64,000 nucleotides of DNA from an uncultured Gemmatimonadales bacterium (GCA_963697435.1 CAVOOB010000002.1:587681-651680), one strand, 5' to 3'; counted from the stretch's first letter, positions 9,681 to 39,872 are shown. The notes: generated from the sequence alone by a model not told the origin. Program-made: numbers and translations.

Positions 9681-12600
9681 ATGAAGCAAAGTTGTGTGAG
9701 CGCCTTCACCCGTGCGGCGCGCTATATCGCGCTGACGGCAGTCGTTCTGGCGACGGGAGCCTCGACGCTCTTCGCCCAGGCCTCGACTGGTAAGATTGAA
9801 GGCAAGGTGCGCGACCAGCAGGGCGCGCCAATCGCGAACGTGCAGGTCATCATCGTCGGCACCAAGTTCGGTGCACAGACCAACGCCGACGGCTACTACT
9901 TCATCAACCTTGTGCCCGCCGGTTCCGTCACGCTGCAGGCCTCGTTCATCGGCTACAAGAAGACGCAGGTCACCGACCTTCGCGTTCTCTCCGGCCAGAC
10001 GATCACGGCCGACATCACGATGGAGTCCACGCCGGTCGAGGTGACCGAGATTACGGTCGTCGCGGCGCAGAACGAATTGGTCCCCCGAGACGCGGTCACC
10101 ACGAAGCAGAGCGTCCAGGGTACCTACACGGACAAGCTGCCGGTCGACCGGATCTCGAACGCCCTCGCGCTGCAGCCGGGTGTCGTGGCCAGCACGGGTG
10201 GCACGACGCTCTCGATTCGCGGCGGCCGGACGGACGAACAGGCCACCTACGTCGACGGCGTGCCCACCGGCGCCGGCAACCGCGGCGGCGGATTCGTCAC
10301 TGCGGGCGGCAACCAGCTCCAGATCGGCACCAACGGCTTCGAAGACGCCTCCATCACCACGGGCGCCTCCTCCGCGGCCTTCGGTGGTGCGCAGTCCGGC
10401 ATCATTTCGATCTCGACCCGGACCGGCGGCGACAAGTTCAGCGGCGCGGTCGGCTATGAGTCCGACGGGCTCCTCGGCAACAGCGTGAGCCTCGGCTTCA
10501 ACCGCGTCACCGCCAGTCTTGGCGGCCCGATCGTCAACAACCTGTCGTTCTTCATCAGCGGCGCGCTCGAAGGGTACGCGAGCCAGGGTGCGGGCCAGAA
10601 TCGCGCCAATTCGCCGTACTTCTCGCGGGCAGGCACCGACACGGTCGTGGCCGTCCCGAGCGCTCTCGGCGACCCGGTCTCCGACACGGCGTACGTCGCC
10701 GTCGACCAGTTCGCCGTCTACACCGGCAAGTGCGACGAGACCATGACGTACGCCGGGATCAACATCCAGAACAGCAGCAATCCTGACATTGCCAACAACT
10801 ACGGCCTCGACTGCCAGGGGATCCGCCTGCCGGGAACCGCGAACTCGAACTACGCGATCCAGGGCAAGCTGAACTACACCTACGGCACCGGCTCGCGCAT
10901 CTTCCTGAGCGCGAACGCCAGTCAGGCCCAGGGGCGCAATTTCACCTACGCGAACCTGTACAACCCGCAGCAGATCTTCGGGAACAACGGCAAGAACAAC
11001 GTCTACACCCTTGGCTGGACGCAGAACCTGGCCAAGTCGTCGGCGCGCGCCCTGGCGCTCGACGTGTCGTTGTCCTACCAGACGGACGAATTCATCCAGT
11101 CGCCGCTGACCCGGCAGTCGGAAGTCGACAGCCGCAGTCCGTGGGGCGGCTTCATGATCTCGCCGCTGGATTTCCAGTTCGATTTCGACAACTTCCCGCT
11201 GAACCAGGAACTGCTCGATAACTTCCAGCAGAACAAGGCGGGCAGCCGGCGCTCTCCGTACGACCTCGAGAACACCGCGCAGTACGCCCTGGTCGACAAG
11301 TGGCGGAACAACGCCTACGGCCTCCTCGGCTTCTCCGAGGCCGGTGGCCCGACGGGCCGGCTCTTCCTGAACCAGGAAAACCGCTTCATCGGCGCGGCGG
11401 CCCTCGACTGGCAGGTCGACCGCTACAACCGCCTCAAGATCGGTGGCGGCTTCACCAACTTCGACATCAAGTCGTACTCGTCGCAGCTGGTCAGCCAGGC
11501 CTTCTCGGATTTCTATATGGAGAAGCCGACCTCGTGGACTGGTTACGCCGAAGACCGCCTCGACCTCGGTGACGTGGTCCTCGTGGCGGGCCTCCGGTAC
11601 GACTACTACAACTCGAATGCCTCACACCCGCAGTACTGCGACTCCACCGGGTGCCAGCCGACCGTCCGTATCTCGAGCAATCCGCTCTGGGATCCGAACG
11701 ACGTGCAGGGCTCGCTCGACACCATTTACACCCCGGACTCGTCGCACGACTACCTGTCGCCGCACATCCAGGTGTCCTTCCCGGTGAGCGACCGCACCAA
11801 CATGCGGTTCTCCTATGCCCACCAGGTCCAGCCACCGGACTTCGCGCTGGTGCTCGGCGGGATCAACACCGACCTGGCCGTGACGAACACCAACCACGTC
11901 TACGGGTCGGACCTCGACTTCGGCACGACGATCACCTTCGAGTTCGGCATCCGGCACGCCTTCTCGGATGACTTCGTGCTCGACTTCTCGGCCTATAACC
12001 GCGACGCCCAGTCCAACCAGGCTGGCCGTCTGCTCTCGCTGTACGATCCGCTCAAGCTGCAGAATCAGGACGTCCGGATGATGACCAACCAGGACTACGG
12101 CAACTACCGTGGTTTTGACATCCGGATCGACAAGCGGATCGGGAGCCTGTTCAACGGCACGCTGGCGTATTCCTTCAGCGACGCCAAGAACACCGGCTCG
12201 GATCCGTTCACCTACATCAACTTCGGTTCACGGATCGTCAACCAGATCAGCGGTGGTAACGACCCGCCGCCGTCGGCCTACCTGCCGACGACCTACACCC
12301 GGCCGCACAACCTGGCCGGCTCGTTCTCCATGACCTTCCCGAACGAGTGGAACGCCGGGTCGACGATGGGCAGCATCCTCGAGAACGTCGGCATCTTCGC
12401 CACGTTCCGTGTGGCCAGCGGCACGGCCTACACCCGCTGCCCGGTGGAAACCGGCAACGAGTCGGTCATCTCCCCGGGCGTCTGCGCCCGGCAGTTCGAG
12501 GGCGACGTCAACGGCTCGCGGCTGCCCACCTTCCGGAACACCGACCTTCGGGTCACCAAGGGCTTCCGGTTTGGCGGCGTGGACCTGACGGGGTACGTCG

Positions 12601-12998
12601 ACGTCCGCAACCTGTTCAACTTCACCAACACCACCCAGGTCTTCGCCGAGAACAACAGCATCGAGAACACGGTGGAGCTCGACGAGACCTGGTCGGGCGA
12701 CTCCGCGGGGTACGCGGATGAAGCCAGGGCGTCGGCGGCCTATGACGCCAGTTCCGGCGACATGTTCCTGCCCAGCACGGGCGGTTGCGGTAACTGGGTG
12801 ACCCAGGACGGCAAGGCGGCCGCGCCGAACTGCGTGTACCTGATCCGGGCCGAAGAGCGTTTCGGTAACGGTGACGGCACGTTCACGCAGGCGGAACAGC
12901 GCCGCGCGTCGGAGGCGAATTACTACACGAACCGCAGCGAAGCGAGCTTCACGGCCGCCCCGCGGCGGATCCGACTCGGCTTGGAGTTGAATTTCTAA
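9681..12998 (+). CDS. TonB-dependent receptor with N-terminal carboxypeptidase-regulatory-like domain
   Basis: GGAGGA RBS, signal peptide LFA/Q, GKIEGKVRD...TNADGYYFI, plug motif LSIRGGRTDEQATYVDGV, AGLRYDYY, C-terminal PRRIRLGLELNF. Confidence 0.92.
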   Translation: MKQSCVSAFTRAARYIALTAVVLATGASTLFAQASTGKIEGKVRDQQGAPIANVQVIIVGTKFGAQTNADGYYFINLVPAGSVTLQASFIGYKKTQVTDLRVLSGQTITADITMESTPVEVTEITVVAAQNELVPRDAVTTKQSVQGTYTDKLPVDRISNALALQPGVVASTGGTTLSIRGGRTDEQATYVDGVPTGAGNRGGGFVTAGGNQLQIGTNGFEDASITTGASSAAFGGAQSGIISISTRTGGDKFSGAVGYESDGLLGNSVSLGFNRVTASLGGPIVNNLSFFISGALEGYASQGAGQNRANSPYFSRAGTDTVVAVPSALGDPVSDTAYVAVDQFAVYTGKCDETMTYAGINIQNSSNPDIANNYGLDCQGIRLPGTANSNYAIQGKLNYTYGTGSRIFLSANASQAQGRNFTYANLYNPQQIFGNNGKNNVYTLGWTQNLAKSSARALALDVSLSYQTDEFIQSPLTRQSEVDSRSPWGGFMISPLDFQFDFDNFPLNQELLDNFQQNKAGSRRSPYDLENTAQYALVDKWRNNAYGLLGFSEAGGPTGRLFLNQENRFIGAAALDWQVDRYNRLKIGGGFTNFDIKSYSSQLVSQAFSDFYMEKPTSWTGYAEDRLDLGDVVLVAGLRYDYYNSNASHPQYCDSTGCQPTVRISSNPLWDPNDVQGSLDTIYTPDSSHDYLSPHIQVSFPVSDRTNMRFSYAHQVQPPDFALVLGGINTDLAVTNTNHVYGSDLDFGTTITFEFGIRHAFSDDFVLDFSAYNRDAQSNQAGRLLSLYDPLKLQNQDVRMMTNQDYGNYRGFDIRIDKRIGSLFNGTLAYSFSDAKNTGSDPFTYINFGSRIVNQISGGNDPPPSAYLPTTYTRPHNLAGSFSMTFPNEWNAGSTMGSILENVGIFATFRVASGTAYTRCPVETGNESVISPGVCARQFEGDVNGSRLPTFRNTDLRVTKGFRFGGVDLTGYVDVRNLFNFTNTTQVFAENNSIENTVELDETWSGDSAGYADEARASAAYDASSGDMFLPSTGGCGNWVTQDGKAAAPNCVYLIRAEERFGNGDGTFTQAEQRRASEANYYTNRSEASFTAAPRRIRLGLELNF

Positions 12999-13010
12999 CG
13001 TGAATGATCC

Positions 13011-13062
13011 ACGGTGGATGAGGGGGCGGCGCGCCGAACGGCGCCGCTCCCGCATCTCACCG
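13011..13062 (+). promoter_or_regulatory. Intercistronic stem-loop without U-tract
   Basis: CGGTG/CACCG, GATG/CATC and GGGGGCGGCGC/GCGCCGCTCCC nested pairings. Confidence 0.55.
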
Positions 13063-13089
13063 AACAGTATTCATCTGAGAGAGGATGCA

Positions 13090-16000
13090 ATGCACTCACC
13101 ATTCCGTAAGAGGGGCGTCATTCTGGCAAGCCTGCTGGCGCTTGCGCTGGCGGCGGCGCTGCCGTCGCACGCGTCGGCTGAGCCGGAGCCGGGAGCCAAG
13201 AAGGCCACTGGATTTCGGCTCTTCGCCCGGCCGCTGGGCGCCATGACTATCAACCGGATCTATTGCGGCCTGTCATCCGACGGCCAGATCTGCGTTGACT
13301 CGACCAACTCGTCCACCATCGGTGGCGGCTACTGGCCGAAGGGCACCGCCGACCAGTACATCTTCAACACCGGCCTCCAGTTGGCCGGCATCGTGGGTAC
13401 GGACGGTGGTCCCTGGGCCGGCGATACCACGGGCGCGTTCTTCTTCGACCCGAAGGGCACGACCCAGCACGGCACCCAGGTGGAACCGATCTACAACATG
13501 GCCGGCACCGCGGATTACAACACGGTGTGCAACCCGGACGTGACCGACGTCTGCCAGGGCGGCAGTATCGATGCGGCCTTTGTCCCCTTCGGGGACGAGT
13601 CGGCCGACATCTTCAGCAGCCTGCTGACCGGCAGCCCCGGCAACCGCAAGGCGCAGGCGTCGCAGGGTGACGTCTGGTGGATGTCCTGGGACGGCGACCC
13701 GGCACTGAACGCCGGCCGCAGCCACCCGCTCGGCGTCGTCGTCGAGACCCGCGGCATGGGGTGGAACTTCCCGTCGGGCAACGAAGACATCATCTACTTC
13801 ATCTATACGTTCTATAACATCACGACGACCAACCCGGCCGACTACGCCGCCGTCCGGCCGGAAATGCAGTCCATCCTGCTCGACAAGGCGCAGGAGTTCC
13901 AGGCCAAGAACAACGCCACGTTCGGCGTCAACCTGCCGACGGGCGGCTACACGATCGATGACCTGTACGCCGCGTTCGGCACCGACATGGACGTGGCCTC
14001 GGCCGGCACCAACTACGCCAGTGTCAACCTGCCGTTCGCGCTGGGTTACACCTACGTGCAGAGCTTCGCGGGTACGACCGGGTGGACCTTCGATCCGGGC
14101 GGCACCACCTTCCAGGCGCCGTTCTTCGAGGGTGCCGGCTTTGCGGGCATCAAGTACCTGAAGAGCCCGGCCGGTCCAGGCGCCATTCAGCTCTACTCCA
14201 ACACCATCAACGGCTCGCCGTTCCCGGGGGCGTTCAACGACCCGCAGAACACCATCCAGCTCTGGCGCTACCTGTCGGGCAACATTTCGGTGCCGGCCGG
14301 CGACCAGCCGTGCAACACCGGCAACCCGACCGTCAGCAAGATCTGCTGGATCAACAACACCACGGCCGCCGACATGCGGTTCTACCAGTCCTCCACCGGC
14401 TTCTCACTGCCGCCGGGCGGGCAGGGCTCCATCGTCGTCGCGTACATCTTCGCGGCGCCCGTAGCGGTCCCCGGCTGTCCCGCCGGTGGCGCGGTCTGCG
14501 GTGGCGGCAACCTCAAGCCGGGTAACCCGACCATCCTCGGAGATCCCGTTGCCATGGCGGGTGGCGTCAACCTGGTCGACAGCATCTCCGGGTACATCAG
14601 CGCCACCGACCTCGACGGGAGCGGCGTGTACGAACAGGCGGGCACCATGGGGCCGGAATGGACCGTGGTACCGGGCTCGCTCCTCGGCAAGTCCTACACG
14701 GCGCAAGCGGTGTTCGACGCCGGGTTCCTCCTTCCGTTCGCCCCGGTTCCGCCATCGTTCTTCCTGATTCCAGGTGACAATCAGGTGACGATCATGTGGC
14801 AGCCGTCGACGTCGGAAATCGAAGGCGACCCCTACTATTCGATCGCCTCCGACCCCGCCAGCGCGCTTTACGACCCGAACTATCGTCAGTTCGACGTCGA
14901 GGGCTATCGGATCTATCGGGGCCGCACCGACAACCCCGACGGTCTGTCGCTCATCGCATCCTTTGACTATACCGGCACCGTCTTCAATGACTACGACGGC
15001 GTGATCAATCCGGTGAAGACCTGCGCACCGGAACTCCTGATCCCGGACCCGATGGCGACGCCGGACTGCCCGGTGCTCTTCGATCCCGTCGCGCCGGGTG
15101 TGCCACGTACCACGGCCAATACGGTCAATATCGTGAGCCCGTTCGTCACGACGAAGTTCGGCGGCCGGCTTGAACTGGCCACCGGCGACGCGATCCTGAC
15201 CCAGGTGGACACCGTGGTGACCGGCGGGGCCTCCGGCCTTCCGCCGATGACCAACAGCGGCGTCCCGTTCGTGTTCGTGGATAACGGGGTGCGCAACAAC
15301 TTCCGTTACTTCTACGTGGTCACCGCGTACGACGTGAACTCGTGGTCTTCGGGTCCGACCAGCCTCGAGTCGCCGAAGGCGTCGACCATCTCGGTCACGC
15401 CGCAGGCACCGGCGTCCAACTACGAGAACAGCGCCGTCCTGAGCAGCGGCATCTATGGCCGTGATGTGGCGCTGGACTACCAGGCGCCGTTCCCGGCCAT
15501 CGATGGCAGCCACGGGCCGGTTTCGCCGGCCCGATGCCGGCGGCCGACGCCTGGACGGTGGGCTTCCAGGACTTCGTCCAGCAGGTCATCAGCGCGCCGG
15601 GCAACTTCGCGGTGAAGCTCGACAGCATCACCCTGGGGTCGTCGTACGACGGCATCCCGGTGGAGTACCACATGACCGCCGTCAGCGGTCCCAACTCCGA
15701 GTCGTTCACCGTTTCCATGGCGCAGGTTTCCACGGAAGGCACGGTCACGGCCTCGGGAGCGTTCAACGCGGTCCAGATCGACGGCACCCTCGCGTCGATT
15801 TACGGAGGAAACAGCAACTACTTCCTCAAGGGCGAAGCCAGCATGACGCTGTATGGCACCTACCACACCGGCGGGTACGGCCGTGGTTGCGTCAACAGCG
15901 CCACCGGCTTCGGCAGCACCCGCGAGTGCGCCTACAACGGCCCACGCTGGTTTGCCGGCCCGTCGCCGCAGAACAACGAGACGAAGGTGGACCCGCAGGC

Positions 16001-17110
16001 TACGGCAACCCCGCCAACTTCACCACGCAGACGGTGGATGTGACGCTGCCGCTCAGCGCCGGCTGGAACAACGCCGGCGAACTCCCGGGCGTCCTCGTGG
16101 TCCACAACCCGCAGTCGTATGAGACCATCCAGACGACCTTCCGCCAGATCGAAGGGATCGGGTCGGGAGCCAAGCGGGCGGCGGATTACAACGTCTACTG
16201 GGGCGCAGCCGGCAAGGTTGACTCGGTGATCGACATCACGCACAATGTGCCGGTGCCGTTCAACGCCAACACCTACCGTGGCGGCTGGGGTATCCTGAAC
16301 GCCGCGGCGGCGAACAACCTGACCAGCTACGACACCCGGCTGCAGCTCACCTATGCTGACGTCGGCTGCGTGGAACCGTATAAGTCGATCGCCGGCGCGC
16401 AGGCACTGATACCCTGCCCCGGTCCGGCGTACGCGCTCAGCCAGACGGCCATTCCCGGCCCGACGGCGTTCATCACGACCTCGTTCGCCAACGCCACCTG
16501 GGGCGCCAAGAACGCGCCCGTCGCCGCCAACCCGGGCTTCATCATGCTGCTCGGTGGCGAGATCTACCAGTTCATGCTCGATGCCGCCGGCACGCTGCCG
16601 GCCGCGGGCACGGTCTGGTCGGCGCGTGACTACATCGGCGCCATCCAGGGCGGTAACGGATTCGGCGGCAACTACGGGCCGTACATCTTCACCACGGCGA
16701 GCGGAGACGATCCCAGCAAGCCGACCCGGACCTTCAGCGCGGTTGGTGCGGAGCTTCGTGCCAACTACGATGTTGTGAACCAGGTCAACTCGGTGTCGAA
16801 CCTCGACCTGACCAAGATCCACACGGTGCCGGATCCCTACTACGTCACGAATGAGTACGAAGTCGACTACACGTCGAAGATCATCAAGTTCGTGAATCTT
16901 CCGACGCAAGCGACGATCCGTATTTACTCGTCGAGCGGCATTCTGGTCCGGGTGTTGAATTATGAGTCCGCCGAACTGGGCGGCATGCTGGACTGGAACG
17001 TCCGTAACCGGAACAACCAGGTTGTCGCAAGTGGAGTGTACTTCTATCACGTCGAATCGGGCGATGCGCGCTTCATCGGGCGCATGACCATCGTCAACTT
17101 CGCCAAGTAG
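13090..17110 (+). CDS. Large secreted protein (~1340 aa) with FN3-like domain and T9SS-type/FlgD-like C-terminal domain; frameshifted near 15505, 15521 and 16000
   Basis: Signal peptide; FN3-like PGDNQVTIMW...EGYRIYR...FVDNGVRNNFRYFYVVTAYD; C-terminus IHTVPDPY...IKFVNLPTQATIRIYSSSGILVRVL...WNVRNRNNQVVASGVYFYHVE...GRMTIV. ORFs 13000, 15534 and 15455 join with consistent codon usage. Confidence 0.78.
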
Positions 17111-22434: not shown

Positions 22435-22469
22435 GAGGTCCTCAGGTGTGCATTGGCGTTCGCAGGAGG

Positions 22470-31242: not shown

Positions 31243-32837
31243 CCGCGCCTCCACTGTGCCACCCGGCGCCGCACCATCTCGGTCAGTTCGGCGAGGTCGC
31301 CCCCGCGCGTCGAGCCGAGTTCGCGGTTGACGCGGAGCAGCCCAGCCACCCCGAGGAGGGTGAAGATCACATTGGGCGCCCACATGACCACCGCCGGCGG
31401 GAGGATGCCGGCGTCGGCCAGCGGTTCACCCGCGGTCAGGCTGACGTAGTAGAGCGCAAAGATGCCGAGGCCGCCGCCGAGGACCAGGCCCATGCCGCCG
31501 CGGGGGAAGCGAAGGGCCAGCGGGATCCCCACCAGCACGAAGACCAGGCACGCCGTGCTGATTGCATACTTCTTGTGCACCTCGACGAGGAAGCCGTCGG
31601 CGGTCCGCCTGGCCGACTTGATCCCCTCTGCCGTGTTGGCGACGTCGACCCACGACGAGAGGGTGACCGAGCGGGAGACGCCGTACCCAGCCAGGTCGTC
31701 GGCGCCCGGCCTCGCCCTCGATACGGCCGGGGGAGGGGCCGCGCTGTCCTGGCTCGACACTCTGAGCTTCCGGTTGAGCCGGTCCCGCCGCCATTGTGGC
31801 ATCGTCTCGCTGGTGACGCTGGGGTCCTGCTGTGCGGGATCCTGCGCCTCCACCGTCTCCGGGAGGAACCGACGGCCCAGCGACCGGAACCAACGGCACC
31901 ATGGCGCCCCGCTTGTTCGCCCGCTGTCCGGCATCGCCGCGGGGCCCGGCGGCACCCCGAGCAGATTGCGGAGGTCCTGCTCCACCCGGTCGGCGCGCAC
32001 CAGGGTGAGCGATCGCATGGCTGAGGTGGTGTCGTGCACCGTATCCAGCATCTCACACGTCGTCATCTCCCGGTCGCTCTTCGGGACGTCCCCCTCGGTG
32101 CGGGTCAGGGTGTTGCCGACGCTCCGGACCCGGATGGTATTGACGGTGAAATAGGTCAGCTGCAGCAGCCCGGGGTCGGCTCCCTTGAATTGCATGATCG
32201 AGCCGTCGTAGAGGGTCAGGTAGAGGTCGTTCTGGTTGACCTCGAAGCCCATCCGTCCGCTGTCGGCGTAAATCACCTGGCGCCCCTGCTGGCCCGACAT
32301 GTCGAAGATCGTGACGTCCCGGAGTCGACCGTCCGCTGGCTCGATCCGCCCCGCCCGGAGGAAGAGGTTGGACGGAGGGACGTCGTTCAGCGCCTGCTCC
32401 CGGAATTGGATGGTGGGCCGTTTGCGGCCGATGTCAAAGAGGAGGGCCTTCAGCCGGAGGTTGGCGGCAGGCAGCCCCTGGTCGACGAAGACGAAATCGG
32501 CCACCGTCAGGAGCACCGCCGCCAGGAACACCGGGCGCAGCAGCTGCCCGATCGAGATCCCGCTCGCTCGCATGGCGGTAATCTCGTTTCCTGCGGCCAG
32601 CGTCGTGAAGGCATAGAGCACCGCGAGGAGCACGGCCATCGGCAACGTCATGGCCACGATGAATGGCAGGCTCAGGAGGAAGACCTCCCCGATCAGGCTC
32701 CAGGGCAGGCCCTTGCCGACCAGCGCACCGAACCGCTTGGCGATCTGGTTCAGCAGCATGATGCTGGTCAGCGCCGCCACCGCGAACACGAACGGGGCCG
32801 CCAGCTGCCGGAGCACATATCGGCTCAGCAGGCGCAT
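31239..32837 (-). CDS. lptF: LPS export permease LptF with a long periplasmic insertion
   Basis: LLSRYVLRQ, TLPMAVLLA, NEITAMRASGIS, VEVHKKYAI, MWAPNVIF; 532 aa. Confidence 0.88.
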   Translation of the reverse strand: MRLLSRYVLRQLAAPFVFAVAALTSIMLLNQIAKRFGALVGKGLPWSLIGEVFLLSLPFIVAMTLPMAVLLAVLYAFTTLAAGNEITAMRASGISIGQLLRPVFLAAVLLTVADFVFVDQGLPAANLRLKALLFDIGRKRPTIQFREQALNDVPPSNLFLRAGRIEPADGRLRDVTIFDMSGQQGRQVIYADSGRMGFEVNQNDLYLTLYDGSIMQFKGADPGLLQLTYFTVNTIRVRSVGNTLTRTEGDVPKSDREMTTCEMLDTVHDTTSAMRSLTLVRADRVEQDLRNLLGVPPGPAAMPDSGRTSGAPWCRWFRSLGRRFLPETVEAQDPAQQDPSVTSETMPQWRRDRLNRKLRVSSQDSAAPPPAVSRARPGADDLAGYGVSRSVTLSSWVDVANTAEGIKSARRTADGFLVEVHKKYAISTACLVFVLVGIPLALRFPRGGMGLVLGGGLGIFALYYVSLTAGEPLADAGILPPAVVMWAPNVIFTLLGVAGLLRVNRELGSTRGGDLAELTEMVRRRVAQWRRG

Positions 32838-32925: not shown

Positions 32926-35900
32926 GTGGCCCGTCTCGCTCTTGCCCTCGGGTTCCTGTTCCTGTTGCTGCCCGTCGCGGCGTCCGCCCAGGACGCGCCG
33001 GGAGAACCCGCCGTTCGTGCGTCCTTTAATGTAGCGCTCCCATCGCTCCAGCAACCGCTGGAAGCCCGGGCGGCCTGGCTCGGGGCGCCCGGGGTGACCC
33101 CTGCCCAGAGGGGGGCGCGATGGCAGCGGCAGCTCGATGCGCGGCGCCTCCGGGAGCAGGCCGCCTCGACGTCGGCCAGCCTCATGGCCGCGCTCTATGG
33201 CGCCAACAGCCTGCAGGTCCAGTACGCCAACGCGGCCATCGAGGATCGAAAGAGCATTCTCGGAATCCCGTCAAAGTATGCCGATCTCCGCATCGACGGA
33301 TCGGTGTTCCTCGAAATCCGGTCGGACCGCCTCCGGAATCTCACCTGTACGCCGGCGCAGCTCCTCGACCAGAACTCCGGCTGCCGGGGCGGCTTCAAGG
33401 CCCCCCGGCTGGACAACGAATTCAACGCGAAAGTCGGGGGACTGATCGGCAGTCGTCTCCATGTGAACGTGGACTACGATTCCCGCCGGGAGTTCAACGC
33501 CAACAACGACATTCAGGTGTACTACCAGGGCCTGCAGGACGAGATCCTGCAGCGCGTGGAAGTCGGCACCGTGTCGTTCCGCACGCCGCCCTCGCGGTTC
33601 CTGACGGCGGCGATTCCCGCCAACAACTTCGGCATCAACGCCACGCTCGAGTTCGGCGCGTTCACGCTGCAGGGGATGATGGCCACGCAGGAAGGGAGCG
33701 TGGTGGGCCAACGGGTGTACACCGTCGGTGCCACGACCAGCGAGCCGCAGGACCGTCTGGTCCGCGACCTCGATTTCGAGTCGGGCCGGTTCTTCTGGGC
33801 CGTGGACCCGGTGACGCTCCCGAACTATCCCTTCATTGATATCCTCAATCTCGATGCGGTGGCCATTCCGCCGGCCCTCCAGCCGGCGGACGCGCAGGTC
33901 CGGGTGTACCGGTACCGCACCGGTGTGGGCAGCGGGCTCAATCCGAATCTCGGCGGGATCACCGCCCTCGGGTTCCGGCCCGATGGACCCGAGCGGGTGG
34001 AGGGCACCTGGCAGCTGCTGTTGCAGGGCGCCGATTACTACCTCGACCCCTCGGCCACCTGGTTTGCCCTGGCGACCCGCCTCGACCAGAACGACTATCT
34101 CGCCGTCAGTTACGTCACCGTGAACGGGACGAGGGTCGGAACCTTCCCCTCCGCGGAAAACCCGGCGGTGACCGACAGTCTCTTGCTCGTCGCCATCCCG
34201 CTGCAGGGTCCGACGGAGCAGACCTTCCGGCACGAGATGCGCCAGGTGTACCGGGTGTCAGGCACCGACCTCGAGAAACAATCGCTCCGGGTGACGGTGT
34301 CCCTCAACCAGTCCGAACGCCCCAGCAGCGGGGAGGCGCAGACGTATCTCGCCTTCTTCGGGCTGGCGATCCCCCCGGATCCGAACATCTTCGACACCGA
34401 CAACCGGCTCTTTCCGCGGACCCGCGATCCGGGGGCCGATCTCGTCCTGCGCGAGTCGTATATCGCCTATCCGACCCTCAAGCCGTTCGTCGATCCCCGC
34501 CTCCAGCCGAATGAACGGGCGGATTCCATCTACCAGTCGCCGGTGTACCTCCTCCTGACGCCACAGGGTCCTCCGTCCCGGTTCCAGATGCGGTTGAAAT
34601 ACGAAGCTGCCGGGGGCACCGACGCCGGAAGCCTCAACCTCAACGCGCTCCAGATCCGGCGCGGCTCCGAGCAGCTCATTGCCGGGGGGCGCGTGCTTGA
34701 ACGGGGCGTGGACTACGAGATCAACTACGACCTCGGGCAGGTCACCTTCAACAGCCCCGCCACCCTCTTTCCCTCGGGTGTCGGGACGGTGACCGCACGC
34801 TTCGAGGAGCGGGGTATCTTCGCCGTGGCGCCGACCTCCATCCTGGGCGGAACGCTGGGGTACTCCTTCGGCGAGGTCGGGTCGGTCAACCTCGTCGCCA
34901 TGTACCAGAAAGAGCAGTCGGTCTTTACCCGGCCGACGCTGGGTTTCGAGCCGACCTCGAATTTTCTGACCGGCATCACGACCGACCTCAAGTTCCAGGT
35001 GGACGGAGTCAGCCGGTTCTTCGACAAGCTCACATCCCAGGACGTGACGGCGCCCTCGCGCCTCGACATCCGGGCGGAGTACGGGACAACCCATCCTGAC
35101 CCGAACATCACCGGCCTCGCCTATCTCGAAGACTTCGAGGGGGAGTCCTTCATTCCAGTCAGTCTGCTGAATTCGCGCTGGGAGTACGGGAGCGTCCCCC
35201 AGTCGCCGGTGGGCGTGGAGGGACTCGGGTTTTCGGCTGGCTTCGATTCGCTCTGGGCGGTCCAGCTGAGCTGGCAGAACCTCATTCCCTCCTGCAGCGG
35301 CTGCCCGCCCGTCGAGCTCTACCCCCAGGACATCGACCCGACGATCATCACGAACGGGACCGGGAGCGTGAACGAGACGGTGCTGTATCTCACCTTCCAC
35401 GCCGACACGGCGGGCGGGATGGTCCAGCAGAACAACCGGTCCCTCTGGTCGCAGCCCGCGCAGCCGTTCACGCCCCGCTGGCGTTCGCTGGTGACGCCCC
35501 TCTCGCAGACCGGCCTCGACCTGTCGCGGGCGGAGTATTTCGAATTCTGGGTCTTTCAGGGCGGCGAGAAGTCCGTGGACTCCGCCGGCATGCAAATGGT
35601 CCTTGATCTCGGCACGGTCAGCGAGGACGCGATGTCGGTGACACCGGACAGCCTGACCGTCGTCGGGTCCGACAGCCTCTACACCGGTCGACACTACTCC
35701 GGTGTGGGCGTCCTGAACAGCGAGCGGCAATCCACCGGCATTTACAACGCCTCCAACGACGATATCGGCATCCTCCTCGATCGCGTGGATTCGCTCTTCG
35801 TCGATGGCGCGGTCGTCAAGGACGTGCAGACCTGCACGGAGCTGCTCTCGGAGACGGTGCCGATCTATCCCTGGGGTGACCTGAGCAGCCGGTGTTCCAA

Positions 35901-38900
35901 CGGCAACGGGTTCCTGGACACCGAAGACCTGAACGGCGACAATCGCCTGAACGCCCAGGGGGCCAACGACAACGTCCTGCGCTGGGTCATCGAGCCGAAC
36001 CAGCTCTCGCAGTACTATGTCCGCACCGGCGCCACCTATACCAATACGCAGGGCGAAACCTCGACCTGGACGCTCTACCGGGTTCCGCTTCGGGTGCCGG
36101 AGGCCACCATCGGCACCCCCAATCTCCGGCTGATCCAGAGTATGCGGGTGACGATGGTGGCGCCCGACATGCCGGAGCCGGATGTGGTGGCCCGGTTTGC
36201 CCTCGCGCGGATGCGGTTTATCGGGGCCCCGTGGGTCCGGCGCGCCGACACGCCGCTGATCGGCATCGGCGGTTCGGTAGCCAGCCCGACCGGGACGATG
36301 TTTGCCGCGGTCATTTCCACCGAGGATGTGGCGCTGGGGTACACCTCACCACCCGGCGTCGTCAACGAGCCTGCCCGGAATGACAACAGCCAGCAGGTGC
36401 AGGGGCTCCAGATCAACGAAAAGTCGCTGCGGATCGTGGCCACGTCGCTCGAGCTTGGCCAGCGGGCGGAGGCGTACCAGCGCTTCCCCTCCGGCCCGCA
36501 GAGCCTGCTCAAGTACGAACAGATTCGCGTCTGGTTCCGAGGGCGCGGCGATGGATGGGAAGGTGGCGATCTCAACGCCTTCTTCAAGGTCGGGAGCGAC
36601 GACAAGAACTGGTACATGTTCCTGAGGCCCGCCAGCAGCGTGGCGTGGGTGCCGGAGGCACAAATCAGCATTTCCGTGTGGCGGCAGCTGCGTGCAGAGA
36701 TCGAGCAGCGCTGGCTGCAGGGACTCCCGCCCAGCGGATCGGTCGACTGTGGCATCGGCGACCCCGCGGCGTACGTGGCCTGCGACGGGTCCTATGTGGT
36801 GCAGGTGGCCGACCCGGGTGTCAATCCGCCGAACCTCGCCTCGGCGCAGGAACTCGCCGCCGGCATCTATCGGGTGGCTGATACCGAGGTGCTGACCACC
36901 GTCGAATTGTGGGTCGACGACATCCGGCTGGACAATCCGCTGACCGAGTCCGGCTCCTCGATGGCGCTGGATGCCCGGCTGGCCGCGGCCGATGTGGCGG
37001 ACTTCTCCATCAATTACGTGCGGCAGGATGGCCTGTTCCAGCAGATCGGGCGCGACCCGACATACCGGACCACCGGTGCGCTGGTCCTCGGCACCAACAT
37101 CCGTGTGGACCGGTTCCTCCCTGCCTCGCTCGGCATTTCCGTCCCGATGTCCGTCAACCACACCTATACGTCGGCCGATCCGATTCTCATCGGGGGCACC
37201 GACATCCTGGCGGCCGACATCCCCAATCTCCGACAACCGTCCAGCGGGCTGACGCAGTTCAACATCGGCATCCGCCGGACGAAGCGCGGAACGACGACAC
37301 TCGAACGGGGCCTGCTCGATCCGCTCTCGTTCAGCGCGTCGTACACCACCGGCCAGGCCCAGACCGAGCTCTCGTCAAGCAACACCTCGGCGACCTTCTT
37401 CAACCTGACCTACCTGCTGGTGTTGCCGAAGACGGGGCCGAGCATCTCGCTCGGCGGCGCGGTGGACCAGCTCCCGCCCTGGCTGGCGAAGAGTGAAGGG
37501 TTGACCGCCTCGCGCACGACTCAGTTCAACCTGGTGCCAGGCGCGGTCCGCCTCGGCAGCCAGCTGACACGGGCGGAGAGCGACTTCACCGGCTACCTCG
37601 TGCCGGTGCTCCGGCCAGGCGATGCCGCGCTTCAGCCGGTCGTCTCGATGACCAACCTCTGGCGCAACAGCGCCGGATTCACCTGGCAGCCGATCGGGCT
37701 CATCACCTTCAACGCCGACCTGGCGAGCACCCGGGATCTCCGGGAATATGACGACACGACCTCCATCGGTCGGCTCACCGACGCCTCCCGGAAGGAGTTC
37801 CTCGGCCTGGATGTCGGCGTCGAGCGGGACCGGAACTTGAACACCTCCATCTCGATTGCGCCGCGCCTGACCTCCTGGCTGCGCGGGCGGTTCAATACCA
37901 TCAGCAGCTTCGTGTTGTCCCGCAGCCTGACCAGCCGGGCGCCCATCCAGCAGTACGGCGACTCTGGTGCCTACATCCTGCCTCAGACGCTTAACAATCT
38001 GCGCACTCGCGAAATCGGGATCACGCTCGATCCGCCCCGTGGCTTCCGGCAGTTGCTCAAGGACTCCAGCACCGCCAGCCGGGCCCTCCTGGGGCTCAGG
38101 GTGATCGACTTCTCGTATCGGACCACCCTCAGCTCCACCTTCGACCTCGCGACCTTTTCCCCGGGGCTGGGCTACATGCTGGCTCGAGGCGGGCTGGACG
38201 ACTTCCTGACCCAGGATGGGGACTCCGCGCTCAGTGCCGTCGAATCCTCCACCGTCACGGTCGGGGGAGGCGCCGACCTCCCGCTCGGCATCACGGCCAG
38301 CCTCCAGTATTCCGAGTCGAACATCGATCGCTACGCACAGGCGAGCAACGCCTATCTGCGCACCGAGATTACCCAGAAGGAATGGCCAATCTTCCAGGCG
38401 CGATGGACGCAGACCCTGCGGAAGGGACTGCTCACGGTGATCAGCCTCTCCACGAACCTGCGGAAGCGGTCCGGCCAGACCGTGCTCCCCTCCACCGCCG
38501 CCAACGCCCTGTCCCTCACCGAGACGTCCACCTGGAGCAACGATCTCCAGCTGACCTTTCGGAAGGGGTTCAGCCTCAGCCTGGGCTATGGCGTCACGAA
38601 CGACGAACGCCAGAGCAACGGCACCACCACCCTCGGCAACGGGGAAGACCTCACGGCCAACCTGATCTATCTCTTCCGGCTCCCGGGCAAAATCAGCAGT
38701 GCGCGCAAGCAGGTACGGGTATCGATCAACGCCCTCTCCAGCAAGGCGGAAGCGTGCCTCGATCTGCCGGACGAGGACGAGTGCATCGGGGTGTCCGATA
38801 CCCGCAGGAAGACGCTGCGCGCCGGGATTGACACCGATCTGCTGTCGATTCTGACCGGCGGCTTCCAGGCCGCCTATGTGCTCAACGACATACGACAGCT

Positions 38901-38970
38901 GAACCGCAAGACGGAGCAATTGACGCTCAGCCTGACCTTCCAGCTCTCTCTCTTCTCTGGAGACTATTGA
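32926..38970 (+). CDS. sprA: SprA/Sov-like type IX secretion outer-membrane translocon
   Basis: 2014 aa with signal peptide ASA/Q. N-terminal block GLIGSRLHVNVDYDSRREF...IQVYYQGLQDEILQRVEVGTVSF...NFGINATLEFG; LERGVDYEINYDLGQVTF; AYLEDFEG; EYFEFWV; DLGTVSED; LDTEDLNG; ELWVDDIRL; long C-terminal amphipathic beta strands. Confidence 0.85.
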   Translation: MARLALALGFLFLLLPVAASAQDAPGEPAVRASFNVALPSLQQPLEARAAWLGAPGVTPAQRGARWQRQLDARRLREQAASTSASLMAALYGANSLQVQYANAAIEDRKSILGIPSKYADLRIDGSVFLEIRSDRLRNLTCTPAQLLDQNSGCRGGFKAPRLDNEFNAKVGGLIGSRLHVNVDYDSRREFNANNDIQVYYQGLQDEILQRVEVGTVSFRTPPSRFLTAAIPANNFGINATLEFGAFTLQGMMATQEGSVVGQRVYTVGATTSEPQDRLVRDLDFESGRFFWAVDPVTLPNYPFIDILNLDAVAIPPALQPADAQVRVYRYRTGVGSGLNPNLGGITALGFRPDGPERVEGTWQLLLQGADYYLDPSATWFALATRLDQNDYLAVSYVTVNGTRVGTFPSAENPAVTDSLLLVAIPLQGPTEQTFRHEMRQVYRVSGTDLEKQSLRVTVSLNQSERPSSGEAQTYLAFFGLAIPPDPNIFDTDNRLFPRTRDPGADLVLRESYIAYPTLKPFVDPRLQPNERADSIYQSPVYLLLTPQGPPSRFQMRLKYEAAGGTDAGSLNLNALQIRRGSEQLIAGGRVLERGVDYEINYDLGQVTFNSPATLFPSGVGTVTARFEERGIFAVAPTSILGGTLGYSFGEVGSVNLVAMYQKEQSVFTRPTLGFEPTSNFLTGITTDLKFQVDGVSRFFDKLTSQDVTAPSRLDIRAEYGTTHPDPNITGLAYLEDFEGESFIPVSLLNSRWEYGSVPQSPVGVEGLGFSAGFDSLWAVQLSWQNLIPSCSGCPPVELYPQDIDPTIITNGTGSVNETVLYLTFHADTAGGMVQQNNRSLWSQPAQPFTPRWRSLVTPLSQTGLDLSRAEYFEFWVFQGGEKSVDSAGMQMVLDLGTVSEDAMSVTPDSLTVVGSDSLYTGRHYSGVGVLNSERQSTGIYNASNDDIGILLDRVDSLFVDGAVVKDVQTCTELLSETVPIYPWGDLSSRCSNGNGFLDTEDLNGDNRLNAQGANDNVLRWVIEPNQLSQYYVRTGATYTNTQGETSTWTLYRVPLRVPEATIGTPNLRLIQSMRVTMVAPDMPEPDVVARFALARMRFIGAPWVRRADTPLIGIGGSVASPTGTMFAAVISTEDVALGYTSPPGVVNEPARNDNSQQVQGLQINEKSLRIVATSLELGQRAEAYQRFPSGPQSLLKYEQIRVWFRGRGDGWEGGDLNAFFKVGSDDKNWYMFLRPASSVAWVPEAQISISVWRQLRAEIEQRWLQGLPPSGSVDCGIGDPAAYVACDGSYVVQVADPGVNPPNLASAQELAAGIYRVADTEVLTTVELWVDDIRLDNPLTESGSSMALDARLAAADVADFSINYVRQDGLFQQIGRDPTYRTTGALVLGTNIRVDRFLPASLGISVPMSVNHTYTSADPILIGGTDILAADIPNLRQPSSGLTQFNIGIRRTKRGTTTLERGLLDPLSFSASYTTGQAQTELSSSNTSATFFNLTYLLVLPKTGPSISLGGAVDQLPPWLAKSEGLTASRTTQFNLVPGAVRLGSQLTRAESDFTGYLVPVLRPGDAALQPVVSMTNLWRNSAGFTWQPIGLITFNADLASTRDLREYDDTTSIGRLTDASRKEFLGLDVGVERDRNLNTSISIAPRLTSWLRGRFNTISSFVLSRSLTSRAPIQQYGDSGAYILPQTLNNLRTREIGITLDPPRGFRQLLKDSSTASRALLGLRVIDFSYRTTLSSTFDLATFSPGLGYMLARGGLDDFLTQDGDSALSAVESSTVTVGGGADLPLGITASLQYSESNIDRYAQASNAYLRTEITQKEWPIFQARWTQTLRKGLLTVISLSTNLRKRSGQTVLPSTAANALSLTETSTWSNDLQLTFRKGFSLSLGYGVTNDERQSNGTTTLGNGEDLTANLIYLFRLPGKISSARKQVRVSINALSSKAEACLDLPDEDECIGVSDTRRKTLRAGIDTDLLSILTGGFQAAYVLNDIRQLNRKTEQLTLSLTFQLSLFSGDY

Positions 38971-39872
38971 TGCGCGTCTTTCGCGCGCCCGTGCTCGGGG
39001 CTGTCCTGCTCGTCGCCTGTACCCCCGCGAAGCCTCCCCGTCCATTCGACGGGGCGGCGGCCCTCCGCGCCGTCGAGGCCCAGGTGGCCTTCGGCCCCCG
39101 GATCCCGGGCACGCCGGGCCACGCGGCCGCGGCCGCATGGCTCGACAGTCTCCTCCTGCCCCTGGCCGACACCGTGATCGTGCAGCGCTGGACCCACGTG
39201 ACGGTGGCCGGCGACTCCCTCCCCCTCGTGAACTTCGTCGCCCGGTTCAACCCGGGGGCGGGGGAACGGATCCTCTTCCTGGCGCACTGGGACACTCGGC
39301 CCCGCGCCGACGGACCCGAGAGCCGGGACAGCTCCGCCGCCGTCCCAGGCGCGAACGATGGCGCGTCCGGGACCGCCATCCTCCTCGGCGTCGCCGCCGC
39401 TCTGCGGCAGGCACCGCCGACGGTCGGGGTGGACCTGCTCTTTGTCGACGGTGAGGACTACGGCGTGTTTGACGACAAGGCGGATGTCCTCCTCGGCTCC
39501 CGGTACTACGCGGCGAACCCCGCCCCAGGCCCCCCGCCGCTGTACGCGGTGCTCTTCGACATGGTCGGTGACCGGGACCTGCAGATCTACCAGGAGGGCA
39601 ACTCCGTGACGGGTGCCCCCGAGGTGGTGGACCTGGTCTGGCGAGTGGCACGAAAGGCGGGGCACGGAAATGCCTTCATCCCGACCCTGCGCTACACGAT
39701 CACCGACGACCATCTGTCGCTGCAGGCCAAGGGCATCCGGGCCATCGACGTCGTCGACTTCGACTATCCCTACTGGCATACCCCGGAAGACACGCCGGAC
39801 AAGGTGAGCGCGCAGAGCCTCCAGGCGGTCGGGGAAGTGGCGCTGGCGCTGGTGGCAAACACGGAGGACTGA
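38970..39872 (+). CDS. M28-fold lipoprotein, glutaminyl cyclase-like
   Basis: Lipobox LLVAC; AHWDTRP, GANDGASG, DGEDYG, LGSRYY, LFDMVG, ITDDH, YWHTPED; TGATG overlap with sprA. Confidence 0.82.
   Translation: MRVFRAPVLGAVLLVACTPAKPPRPFDGAAALRAVEAQVAFGPRIPGTPGHAAAAAWLDSLLLPLADTVIVQRWTHVTVAGDSLPLVNFVARFNPGAGERILFLAHWDTRPRADGPESRDSSAAVPGANDGASGTAILLGVAAALRQAPPTVGVDLLFVDGEDYGVFDDKADVLLGSRYYAANPAPGPPPLYAVLFDMVGDRDLQIYQEGNSVTGAPEVVDLVWRVARKAGHGNAFIPTLRYTITDDHLSLQAKGIRAIDVVDFDYPYWHTPEDTPDKVSAQSLQAVGEVALALVANTED

Follow-up and report, generated by a model that had tools for sequence, protein, structure and literature searches.

In this work, a DNA stretch of 64,000 nucleotides (the window) is interpreted as carrying one half of a type IX-like export route, that of the outer membrane, which has been reduced secondarily to a dedicated single-cargo system with no detectable motor, a reading to which we give a probability of about 0.55. 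The host is a Gemmatimonadales MAG from soil or sediment, and its genome is 90.5% complete in 9 contigs. All five genes named in the preliminary description were found in the sequence where it had placed them (Table 1). They had been presented as one system within 30 kb, which does not hold, since they fall into two units about 13-14.6 kb apart and split by unrelated genes. The gap of about 13 kb is occupied by an arylsulfotransferase-like gene, an ABC exporter, a UbiA prenyltransferase, an amino-acid permease, a second barrel of Oar-like type and lptFG. Homology, fold or synteny indicate that the sprA homologue shares a transcript with a glutaminyl cyclase gene and that the operon encoding the C-terminal domain (CTD) protein and the PorV-family barrel is separate. 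The best 80 SprA loci all belong to records named Gemmatimonadales, Gemmatimonadota, Gemmatimonadetes, Gemmatimonadaceae or Gemmatimonas, except for one "bacterium" and one Gaiellaceae, and this origin agrees with the earlier assignment of the genome to a probable Gemmatimonadota.

Table 1. Features of the two units and of the genes beside sprA, in window coordinates
Feature	Position	Strand	Matches
TonB-dependent-receptor-like outer-membrane protein (SusC/Oar-like), 1153 aa, first gene of the cargo operon	9537-12998	+	CarboxypepD_reg, Plug
Cargo gene, ~1370 aa: signal peptide, large N-terminal part without known family, T9SS-type CTD	13000-17110	+	
CTD of the cargo	about 16808-17107	+	TIGR04183, PorZ tail, fold model
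PorV/PorQ-family outer-membrane barrel, 373 aa, predicted CTD receptor, shuttle or anchor	17172-18293	+	NF033709
GWxTD-domain protein, 494 aa, secreted	18299-19783	+	TIGR04514 74.4 bits, cut-off 28
Predicted lipoprotein, 351 aa, no known family, last gene of the cargo operon	19868-20923	+	Cys lipobox
Second barrel, Oar-like	26803-30075		OMP_b-brl_4, 181 bits
lptG and lptF, LPS export permeases	30157-32837	-	LptF_LptG Pfam 224.8 bits; TIGR04407/04408
sprA/sov homologue, 2014 aa, putative outer-membrane translocon	32926-38970	+	TIGR04189, PDB 6h3i_A
Glutaminyl cyclase lipoprotein (M28 fold)	38970-39872	+	Peptidase_M28 115.6 bits

The 2014-aa SprA homologue claimed earlier is confirmed by the SprA/Sov equivalog model TIGR04189, which scored 468.9 bits (cut-off 200) and covered model positions 130-1725 in three stretches of the protein. 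The Pfam model SprA_N matched with 47.3 bits, and the F. johnsoniae SprA structure (PDB 6h3i_A) was matched with an E-value of 2.9e-30. The signal peptide ends ASA|Q, the 2014-aa frame is intact and without stops, and a profile scan of the same genome returned this single SprA locus. The ATG of the cyclase gene shares one base with the TGA stop of sprA (TGATG), an overlap that indicates translational coupling. The product has an N-terminal LVAC lipobox and resembles solved bacterial glutamine cyclotransferases (6qro at the top with 175 bits, then 4fuu and 6qql), so the description of a QC-like lipoprotein joined transcriptionally to sprA was correct. sprA is succeeded by the cyclase gene in 66 of the 80 Gemmatimonadales loci, and likewise in f11 and f12, two deep families. 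On its other side, sprA diverges from lptF, with 88 bp between the lptF start codon (32837) and the start of sprA. Among the 80 Gemmatimonadales loci, 74 and 65 have these permease genes next to sprA, and so do all 17 diverse loci compared, down to the deepest families. They count as conserved neighbours of sprA rather than as established parts of the system.

The cargo gene is split over three frames in the present assembly (13060-15525, 15522-15995 and 16064-17107, with the intact 1368-aa orthologue of the relative G053 as reference), whereas its orthologues in G053, G083, G115 and G023 are intact single ORFs of 1307-1368 aa. Contigs from four of four other runs have two bases fewer near 15508-15524 and two fewer near 15996-16001, and the cargo frame is continuous in them. 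The absence of both 2-base insertions from all of these runs fits consensus errors of the assembly, although the two shifts could also mean that the gene is a pseudogene in this very strain. TIGR04183 scored 19.3 bits on the window CTD, just below its curated cut-off of 23, and 16.6-22.2 bits on the CTDs of the four orthologues, while the PorZ tail model gave 30.3 bits on the window CTD. In each of the four intact orthologues the match to TIGR04183, the PorZ tail or CHU_C lies at the extreme C-terminus. The predicted structure of the domain (pLDDT 82.9) models as a T9SS beta-sandwich, with PorZ 5m11 (E 1.8e-5, TMq 0.68) and PorU 6za2 as the best PDB folds in Foldseek, and it also fits the NucA CTD in a T9SS complex (8glk_D, TMt 0.71). 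Look-alikes of the cargo in the Atlas are solely unnamed proteins. Thus, the sequence score stays below the cut-off, and it is the fold, together with the docking reported below, that bears out a large secreted protein ending in a CTD-like domain which models as a T9SS CTD.

The barrel encoded next to the cargo belongs to the PorV family by NF033709 (132.8 bits, cut-off 90) and matches the PDB PorV chain 6h3i_F with an E-value of 1.7e-5, but it misses the PorV equivalog level (41.7 bits, cut-off 250); the earlier assignment to the PorV family stands. Docking of the CTD on this barrel had been named beforehand as a test, and the prediction came out in its favour. The complex reached an ipSAE of 0.88 in three of three runs (best of three controls 0.00), with a contact agreement of at least 87% and a partner pLDDT of at least 78; since PorV-CTD complexes have already been solved (8gl6-8gln series), the score may reflect likeness to them and not binding of this pair. 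Of 80 solved complexes, 58 attained the mark applied, as did 2 of 110 mismatched pairs; these counts are only a rough guide here because own alignments were used. The order of cargo gene and PorV-like gene is kept in G053, G083 and G115, and also in 3 of 12 PorV loci of deep families, seen through flanks of only 1.5 kb.

The remaining genes of the operon frame this pair. The 1153-aa receptor at its head carries a carboxypeptidase-regulatory-like N-domain (CarboxypepD_reg, 68.5 bits) and a Plug domain (28.6 bits), is weakly similar to the SusC/RagA N-terminus (50 bits) and had no match in a PDB sequence search. A gene of this type stands immediately 5' of the cargo gene in G053, G083 and G115 alike. 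The GWxTD protein, also anticipated in the preliminary description, scored well above the TIGR04514 cut-off, and its model (pLDDT 91.0) consists of a pair of Ig-like sandwiches, a helical part and the GWxTD domain, for which a fold search returned generic tandem-Ig matches only. Its gene adjoins a PorV_fam gene in at least 15 sampled genomes; paralogues of the family occur elsewhere too. Pfam and NCBIfam scans of the terminal 351-aa lipoprotein gave no match, and the gene is partly kept 3' of the GWxTD gene in the same three relatives.

The T9SS of Flavobacterium johnsoniae and Porphyromonas gingivalis comprises SprA/Sov, PorV, PorU/PorZ/PorQ and GldKLMN/PorKLMN. With these systems the window shares the giant SprA/Sov barrel homologue, a PorV-family barrel, a Sec-exported cargo whose Ig-like CTD is modelled like those of PorZ, PorU and NucA, and a glutaminyl cyclase of Bacteroidota type. 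It differs in that the GldL/M motor, the GldK/N ring, the PorU sortase and PorP/SprF were not detected, in that one or two CTD proteins are encoded instead of tens to hundreds, in that the PorV-like gene shares an operon with its cargo, and in that sprA forms an operon with the cyclase gene, head to head with lptFG. In the same genome, Bacteroidota-trained models of GldK, GldL, GldM and GldN had no match at E <= 0.01, PorU gave nothing beyond a 15-bit match to a CTD tail, and TIGR03519 (PorP/SprF) had none. The MotA/ExbB family yielded two matches, both stators of the ExbB/TolQ type. Hence gldK/L/M/N and porU are undetected not only in the window, as had been noticed earlier, but also in the rest of the genome by family-level search, no remainder of a full canonical T9SS was found elsewhere, and the system is stripped down as far as the searches reach. 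In the phylum, matches over cut-off were likewise zero for GldM (0/121 and 0/401 genomes), GldL (0/121 and 0/371), GldN and GldK (0/121 each) and for the more general Pfam model GldM_1st (0/121), with models uncalibrated on a T9SS-bearing genome, so that very divergent GldLM or GldKN homologues could escape them.

Across the phylum, SprA was found in 97 of 121 genomes at about 2000-2600 aa, and it tracks PorV. When the two phylum scans of these genomes were read against each other, PorV_fam at E <= 1e-17 was present in 95 of 97 SprA-positive and 2 of 24 SprA-negative genomes, and the joint losses are scattered across several genera and families. PorU exceeded its cut-off in 18 of the 121 genomes, every one of them in the deep families f10-f12, where porU lies beside porV. 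A genome of these families holds 4-17 PorV_fam matches and has CTD proteins numbering from 13 to 43 or more, compared with 0-2 CTD proteins and no PorU in the window's class (one genome, G105, has 6). The window's own genome has one such protein by a lineage-specific CTD profile, and by TIGR04183 the cargo and one small protein with nothing but signal peptide and CTD. With SprA retained in 97/121 genomes, a 2014-aa translocon with one or two cargoes is an odd pairing. The window's class and f10-f12 share the neighbourhood of lptFG, sprA (with the cyclase gene), comEA and pilBTC, the type of CTD and its succession by a PorV-like gene, and GldL/M/N are undetected in both; the window's class, however, lacks the porU-porV pair and the expansions of PorV_fam and CTD proteins. 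Because porU-porV and CTD proteins by the dozen persist in f10-f12, the window lineage looks secondarily reduced. Thus, of the stripped-down or ancestral variant T9SS proposed earlier, the first part stands to the extent of the searches and "ancestral" finds no support from within the phylum.

It is conceivable, though unlikely in our view, that the T9SS is functionally complete, its motor and ring being too divergent for TIGRFAM and Pfam models trained on Bacteroidota, non-homologous, or located in the unassembled 9.5% of the genome. The missing calibration of the GldK/L/M/N models would allow for this, and families f10-f12, with PorU, PorV, SprA and 13-43 CTD proteins, resemble a working T9SS, in which an absent energiser is surprising; in f10, moreover, proteins with the FGE-sulfatase domain (the GldK/PorK fold) are abundant (11-23 matches per genome). 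Incompleteness of one MAG does not account for the missing motor, since the sample includes many genomes that are 97-100% complete, nor was the first-pass search blind, because weak candidates of 15-21 bits were scored. The best GldK-like genes of two f10 genomes precede a CTD cargo and serA and not gldLMN-like genes, the window's own genus has no FGE-sulfatase match (0/3 genomes), and no conserved pair of unknown membrane proteins accompanies sprA in the 17 diverse loci. That the T9SS-like genes are instead a decaying relic without present function in this strain is very improbable. The three frames of the cargo gene would agree with decay, as would the fragmented PorV-adjacent cargo copies in the few-contig assemblies G023 and G045 and the loss of PorU and nearly all cargoes relative to the deep families. 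However, the frameshifts are missing from the other runs as assembly errors would be, G023 carries a second, intact cargo copy, sprA is intact and widely kept, and the genes of the PorV-like barrel, the GWxTD protein and the cyclase are conserved as well as intact.

A further explanation, which we consider quite improbable, links SprA to LPS transport, as a factor serving outer-membrane biogenesis or export in general and not as the way out for the CTD protein; the cargo operon would then be self-contained, with the TonB barrel exporting or partnering the cargo and the PorV-like barrel only anchoring it. The conserved head-to-head lptFG, the presence of only 1-2 CTD proteins in the genome and the receptor gene directly 5' of the cargo in three of three relatives would suit this arrangement. 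There is also a precedent, as far as the excerpted text of PMC6434023 goes, for a TonB-dependent transporter required for protein secretion: Oar is reported to be needed for PopC secretion in Myxococcus. Here, too, a TonB-dependent-receptor-like barrel with a carboxypeptidase-regulatory-like N-domain lies beside a secreted protein, but that protein has a T9SS-type CTD and a PorV-like neighbour, and the barrel shows no sign of exporting. The synteny with lptFG is no argument against a secretion role, because it is also found in the PorU-bearing deep families with many cargoes. Furthermore, PorV is the partner of SprA in solved Flavobacterium complexes (by their PDB titles), and the joint retention and loss of SprA and strong PorV_fam matches is what a working SprA-PorV pair predicts.

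A T9SS "outside Bacteroidota" is not new as such, since T9SS genes in Gemmatimonadetes are mentioned in one sentence of the portion of PMC11285876 at hand. Pairing of a cargo with its own barrel also has a parallel: in the available part of PMC9143113, the type B CTD cargo SprB has its cognate PorP/SprF-like anchor SprF encoded alongside. Compared with that account, the cargo gene is again followed by its expected surface-holding barrel, one barrel per cargo, whereas the barrel here is of the PorV/PorQ family and not PorP/SprF (TIGR03519: 0 matches), and type A models (TIGR04183, PorZ tail) score the CTD a little higher than CHU_C does. As for the Q-rule, the passages of PMC5837995 at hand regard its link to the T9SS as a phyletic coincidence within Bacteroidetes, and "Gemmatimonad" occurs 0 times in the paper. 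By its matches to 6qql and 6qro, the window's cyclase belongs to the QC family discussed there; unlike what those passages describe, its gene is translationally coupled to sprA, in a phylum that goes unmentioned in that paper. In the window's own genome, Gln is the commonest residue past predicted signal-peptide cleavage sites, with the motif in 177 of 553 signal-like N-termini by a crude scan, and both SprA and the PorV-like protein have A-x-A|Q.

We hypothesize that the reduced single-cargo route works as follows. The cargo would cross the inner membrane via Sec, and the cyclase would cyclise N-terminal Gln residues laid bare by signal peptidase, SprA and the PorV-like protein appearing to be Gln-first. 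According to the modelled complex, the cargo CTD would bind the PorV-like barrel, which would then dock at the lateral opening of SprA, so that the cargo passes through the SprA barrel. Without a detectable GldLM/PorLM motor or GldKN/PorKN ring, the cargo would have to leave SprA either unpowered or with another system supplying the drive. Since there is no PorU sortase, the CTD is expected to remain uncleaved and the cargo to be held on the cell surface by its PorV-like partner. As gene order suggests, the surface cargo would probably act in capture or degradation for the adjacent TonB-dependent transporter. Moreover, the small number of cargoes and the phylum-wide synteny of lptFG with sprA could mean that SprA has another, more general task in these bacteria.

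All five genes named in the preliminary description (sprA, a PorV-family gene, a cargo gene encoding a C-terminal sorting domain (CTD), a GWxTD gene and a glutaminyl cyclase gene) were identified in the window as it had stated. They had been taken for a single system within 30 kb but were found to form two units, the cargo operon and the sprA operon, with about 13 kb of unrelated genes between them (see the table). Between the secretion genes and the minus-strand ASST-like, ABC exporter and UbiA genes (21040-25279), no tie was found. The G+C content of the window is 64-70%, and many of its long ORFs are shadows because of this high value. Two plus-strand ORFs (21028-22065, 22446-24407) and one on the minus strand (42232-44493) appear spurious, as they are Arg/Gly/Pro-rich and have real genes on the opposite strand. 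The initial ~590 bases of the permease ORF overlap the ubiA gene on the opposite strand.

Features of the window around the cargo operon and the sprA operon
Feature	Coordinates	Strand	Evidence or remark
TonB-receptor-like barrel (CarboxypepD_reg + Plug)	9537-12998	+	family scans
Large secreted protein with C-terminal CTD (cargo)	13000-17110	+	family scans
PorV/PorQ-family barrel	17172-18293	+	NF033709, 132.8 bits vs cut-off 90
GWxTD protein	18299-19783	+	TIGR04514, 74.4 bits
Lipoprotein, no family match	19868-20923	+	family scans
Arylsulfotransferase (ASST)-like gene	21040-22434	-	between cargo operon and sprA
ABC exporter	22470-24284	-	between cargo operon and sprA
UbiA prenyltransferase	24281-25279	-	between cargo operon and sprA
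Amino-acid permease	24689-26740 (ORF as scanned)	+	permease domain from about residue 248
Oar-like barrel, 1090 aa	26803-30075	+	CarboxypepD_reg + OMP_b-brl_4 (181 bits); between the two units
lptG + lptF	30157-32837	-	family scans
sprA	32926-38970	+	TIGR04189, 468.9 bits vs cut-off 200; PDB SprA 6h3i_A, E 2.9e-30
M28-fold glutaminyl cyclase (QC)	38970-39872	+	family scans
comEA (HHH_3), pilB (T2SSE + MshEN), pilT-like ATPase, pilC (T2SSF)	39945-44796	+	family scans

The assignment of SprA held in the HMM search, where the TIGR04189 equivalog was passed, and by both this score and the match to the solved SprA the protein corresponds in sequence to the SprA/Sov outer-membrane translocon of a canonical type IX secretion system (T9SS). 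The best 80 SprA loci in a collection of species-representative genomes all came from metagenome-assembled genomes (MAGs), the closest being 94% identical, and except for one "bacterium" and one Gaiellaceae they were titled Gemmatimonadales, Gemmatimonadaceae, Gemmatimonadota, Gemmatimonadetes or Gemmatimonas. In the Gaiellaceae-titled locus (L077, Actinomycetota by name), sprA is Gemmatimonadaceae-like, with 33% identity over residues 116-2014, which is likely the result of a binning error rather than of transfer. The public sequencing runs each contained under half of the sampled words, and the RNA runs at most 0.07.

The sprA stop codon overlaps the ATG of the cyclase gene (TGATG), and lptF starts on the opposite strand 88 bp from the sprA start. 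Among the best 80 Gemmatimonadales sprA loci, many of which have short flanks, tblastn within 10 kb of sprA detected LptF in 74, LptG in 65, the cyclase in 66, ComEA in 55 and PilB in 52. The Oar-like outer-membrane protein lies within the same distance in 39 of these 80 loci. In a set of 16 diverse loci plus the window, LptFG stood beside SprA in 17/17, ComEA in 16 and the cyclase in 6, and no pair of unknown membrane proteins was conserved there; the neighbour clusters of these loci contain antisense shadow ORFs, and only the SprA, LptFG, ComEA, QC and Pil counts were used. Locus maps showed the order lptG-lptF / sprA-QC-comEA-pilBTC down to the deep families f11 and f12, and the cyclase was absent from the sprA neighbourhood in f10. 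The order sprA-(QC)-comEA-pilBTC is maintained even in the phylum's deepest families.

The window cyclase is by sequence a type II (animal-like) bacterial QC, with an M28 fold and close to characterised bacterial QCs; its nearly full-length matches to solved bacterial glutamine cyclotransferases scored 175 bits (6qro_A), 170 bits (4fuu_A) and 157 bits (6qql_A). In a crude scan of signal-peptide-like N-termini of the same genome, made without a trained predictor, Gln followed the predicted cleavage site more often than any other residue (44/359). Of 553 signal-like N-termini, 177 had the motif [AVSTILG]-x-[AGS]-Q, the highest count among the 20 residues, with Ala second at 143, and both SprA (…ASA|QD…) and the PorV-like protein (…LAA|QA…) match it. 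This preference for Gln resembles the Q-rule of Bacteroidetes and suggests that a rule of that type may operate in a Gemmatimonadales genome. The co-occurrence of the Q-rule and T9SS in Bacteroidetes was called striking in the available part of one account, which argued against a mechanistic role in targeting (PMC5837995). The sprA-cyclase operon turns this link, until now just phyletic, into a genomic one.

Compared with the intact 1368-aa orthologue in G053, a genome of the same genus, the window cargo is split over three frames (13060-15525, 15522-15995 and 16064-17107). In four genomes (G053, G083, G115 and G023), its orthologues are uninterrupted ORFs of 1307-1368 aa. The contigs from four other public runs, belonging to three studies, are each shorter than the window by two bases near 15508-15524 and by two near 15996-16001; these contigs are 90-99% alike, apart from one X2 contig below 90%. 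With the two 2-base extras gone, one continuous cargo frame is restored, and the breaks are assembly errors or a quirk of this strain, in a gene family that is intact. There are hints of systematic consensus errors at both sites (15508-15524, 15996-16001). Fragmented cargo copies are also carried by the few-contig assemblies G023 and G045.

The gene order TonB-receptor-like, cargo, PorV-like, GWxTD, lipoprotein recurs in two genomes of the same genus (G053 and G083) and in one of a different genus (G115). With a CTD-type profile, a CTD-bearing ORF was observed directly upstream of the PorV-like gene in three of 12 PorV loci fetched with 1.5-kb flanks only (L091, L095 and L096, all from deep families). 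The N-terminal part of the cargo matched no Pfam or NCBIfam family and had only unnamed proteins as Atlas look-alikes, and the TonB-receptor-like protein had no match by sequence in the PDB. In its own genome, the cargo was the sole protein found with the CTD-type profile, also when this was widened, and TIGR04183 added a second, small protein on contig C3 at 23.7 bits, just over the cut-off. This small protein, encoded at L129 (G000:C3:318011-318523) between selB and clpB, has nothing but a T9SS type A CTD behind its signal peptide (…ATA|Q). At L128 (G000:C1:277235-283740), a 1875-aa ORF without family precedes the gene of a weak PorV-like barrel that stays below the NF033709 cut-off (40 bits), and this pair may be a second cargo-anchor module whose CTD is missed by both profiles.

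The cargo CTD scored 19.3 bits with TIGR04183, below the cut-off of 23, and the last ~100 residues of the four intact orthologues scored 16.6-22.2 bits. The same C-termini gave 23-33 bits with the PorZ CTD model and matched CHU_C in 3/4, always at the extreme C-terminus. The assignment as a CTD, made in the preliminary description, was supported by the predicted fold: the AlphaFold model, built on an 8-row alignment (pLDDT 82.9), has seven strands, and its top PDB matches were PorZ (5m11, E 1.8e-5, TMq 0.68) and PorU (6za2). Lower in the list came FlgD Ig-like domains and the CTD of NucA as solved in a T9SS substrate complex (8glk_D, TMt 0.71). The PorV-like barrel reached the cut-off of the family model NF033709 but neither that of the PorV equivalog NF033710 (41.7 vs 250 bits) nor that of PorQ (64.9 vs 220). 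The predicted complex of this barrel (7-row alignment) with the cargo CTD had an ipSAE of 0.88 in 3/3 runs, against 0.00 for the best of three controls, with a contact agreement of at least 87% and a partner pLDDT of at least 78. The docking mark, which this pair passes, is reached by 58/80 solved complexes and 2/110 mismatched pairs and is rough here, where our own alignments were supplied. Because comparable complexes have already been solved, this predicted docking shows likeness to PorV-CTD complexes and not binding of this pair.

SprA and the PorV family go together across the phylum. PorV_fam was present at E <= 1e-17 in 95 of 97 SprA-positive genomes (exceptions G081 and G118) and in 2 of 24 SprA-negative ones (G048 and G087), four of the latter 24 being inferred from per-family tallies. 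The joint absences are spread over several genera of at least three families; this co-occurrence is a pattern and not a statistic, since genomes that are related do not count as independent observations. Eight genomes of family f1, drawn from six genera (G115, G045, G108, G023, G057, G053, G019 and G025), have sprA and the PorV-like gene on one contig at a distance of 14-17 kb, and the spacing in the window is equal. With 5958 cluster representatives at E <= 1e-3, the GWxTD family is large, and it occurs in 104/121 phylum genomes with several paralogues. It does not track the distribution of SprA, as SprA-less genomes have it too. In at least 15 sampled genomes, a GWxTD gene directly adjoins a PorV_fam gene, and this conserved companion of PorV-like genes is a candidate for a new accessory component. 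Besides the GWxTD domain, the model of the GWxTD protein (pLDDT 91.0) has two Ig-like sandwiches and a helical region; the fold search returned generic tandem Ig-like matches only (RbmA, transglutaminase C-domains; TMq <0.2), and no literature was found under the name "GWxTD".

The GldL/M motor, the GldK/N ring and the PorU sortase of the canonical T9SS were not found by profile search of the genome that carries the window. In this genome (2.92 Mb, 9 contigs, completeness rated 90.5%), GldK, GldL, GldM and GldN gave no match at E <= 0.01 and PorP/SprF (TIGR03519) gave 0 matches, in both cases with models that had no positive control, and PorU gave just a 15-bit match on the cargo CTD. In the phylum sample, SprA was present in 97/121 genomes (96 over cut-off). 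GldM (TIGR03517) was found in 0/121 and over cut-off in 0/401, with two 15-18-bit matches, and the Pfam model GldM_1st in 0/121; GldL was over cut-off in 0/121 and 0/371, with a few ~20-bit matches in long ORFs; GldN was found in 0/121, likewise without positive control. GldK was over cut-off in 0/121, and matches to its FGE-sulfatase domain only occurred in 66/121, none of them in the window's genus. The GldK operon reading of the best FGE-sulfatase genes in two f10 genomes was rejected, as a CTD cargo gene and serA lie downstream and nothing gldLMN-like. The phylum counts include the unpublished genomes G057 (SprA, GldL, PorV_fam, GldK, GWxTD and CTD counts) and G097 (GldK count); G057 is also among the eight genomes with the 14-17 kb spacing and among those with GWxTD beside PorV, and its omission changes no conclusion.

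The phylum falls into two grades. PorU was over cut-off in 18/121 genomes, all in the deep families f10-f12 and none in the window's class (f1-f9), where the PorU model gave CTD-tail matches only (at most 30 bits). These 18 are among the 19 f10-f12 genomes, and in the 19th PorU is split over two contigs; PorU adjoins the PorV gene in at least six of them. There were 13 to at least 43 TIGR04183 matches per genome in f10-f12 vs 0-2 in f1-f9 (one f1-f9 genome with 6), and 4-17 PorV_fam matches vs 1-5. In genomes of f10-f12 such as G002, G005 and G011, FGE-sulfatase-domain genes number 11-23 and PorV_fam matches reach 17, and some FGE-sulfatase genes of these families lie directly upstream of CTD cargo genes. 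Because f10-f12 hold PorU, many CTDs and more PorV_fam, the gene content of the window is best read as a further reduction of a phylum-wide set that already looks motor-less, and not as an ancestral minimum. Of the "stripped-down or ancestral variant" proposed earlier, the first half thus stands as far as these searches reach, with motor, ring and sortase not found, and the second is not supported, given the richer deep families.

We hypothesize, at a probability of roughly 0.55, that the window encodes part of a type IX-like route in reduced form, with no sortase and apparently no motor, for one or two cargoes, in which the PorV-like barrel would serve as both cargo receptor and surface anchor. 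The incompleteness of one MAG does not explain the missing parts, because the phylum-wide samples agree. The main rival is that a divergent energiser is present but went undetected, which we regard as unlikely. No gldKLMN-bearing genome served as control, so the motor and ring absences are without a positive control; the searches for PorU, PorV, SprA, CTD and FGE-sulfatase recovered both weak and strong matches, and the phylum search for PorU doubles as its own internal control. Only two stators of the MotA/ExbB/TolQ family were seen in the window's genome. If a divergent motor turns up, the finding reduces to an ordinary, reduced T9SS outside Bacteroidota. Beyond the reduced, motor-less route of the window itself, a Gemmatimonadota-wide export of CTD proteins via SprA/PorV-type barrels without the GldLM/PorLM motor or the GldKN/PorKN track is a more tentative proposal, which we hold to be possible. 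It would mean that the deep families export dozens of cargoes, with PorU, and that the window is an end point with one SprA, one PorV-like anchor, one cargo and a QC in the sprA operon. Export would then be unpowered or draw on a different energiser, for example TonB-ExbBD or Tol.

In the available parts of the sources, current models hold the proton-driven GldLM/PorLM motor and the GldKN/PorKN ring or track to be indispensable and the T9SS to be specific to one phylum (PMC4793230, PMC5837995, PMC12635249). A moving track with disulfide-attached outer-membrane proteins is central to energisation in the portion available of one of them (PMC12635249). The TXSScan survey, as far as its text was accessible, reports T9SS in Bacteroidetes only (PMC4793230), and its T9SS model is expected to reject a set of just SprA and a PorV-family gene. 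A 2024 review mentions the FCB superphylum in general terms (PMC11205867), and T9SS genes in Gemmatimonadetes receive a one-sentence mention in the accessible part of another paper (PMC11285876). In the literature found on T9SS and Gemmatimonadota, the missing motor, the cargo-PorV-GWxTD operon and the sprA-cyclase operon are not described for this phylum.

The weight of the finding lies in the phylum-wide absence of the motor, an absence still without a positive control. A lineage with translocon, shuttle barrel and tagged cargo and with no detectable motor would offer a direct test of what the energy serves, and the simple one-cargo version would lend itself to genetics and structure determination in relatives of Gemmatimonas that can be cultivated. 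A motor-less lineage would also hint at the order of evolutionary assembly, with the outer-membrane module first. If the phylum-wide reading is true, this module of type IX secretion predates the Bacteroidota motor and is separable from it.
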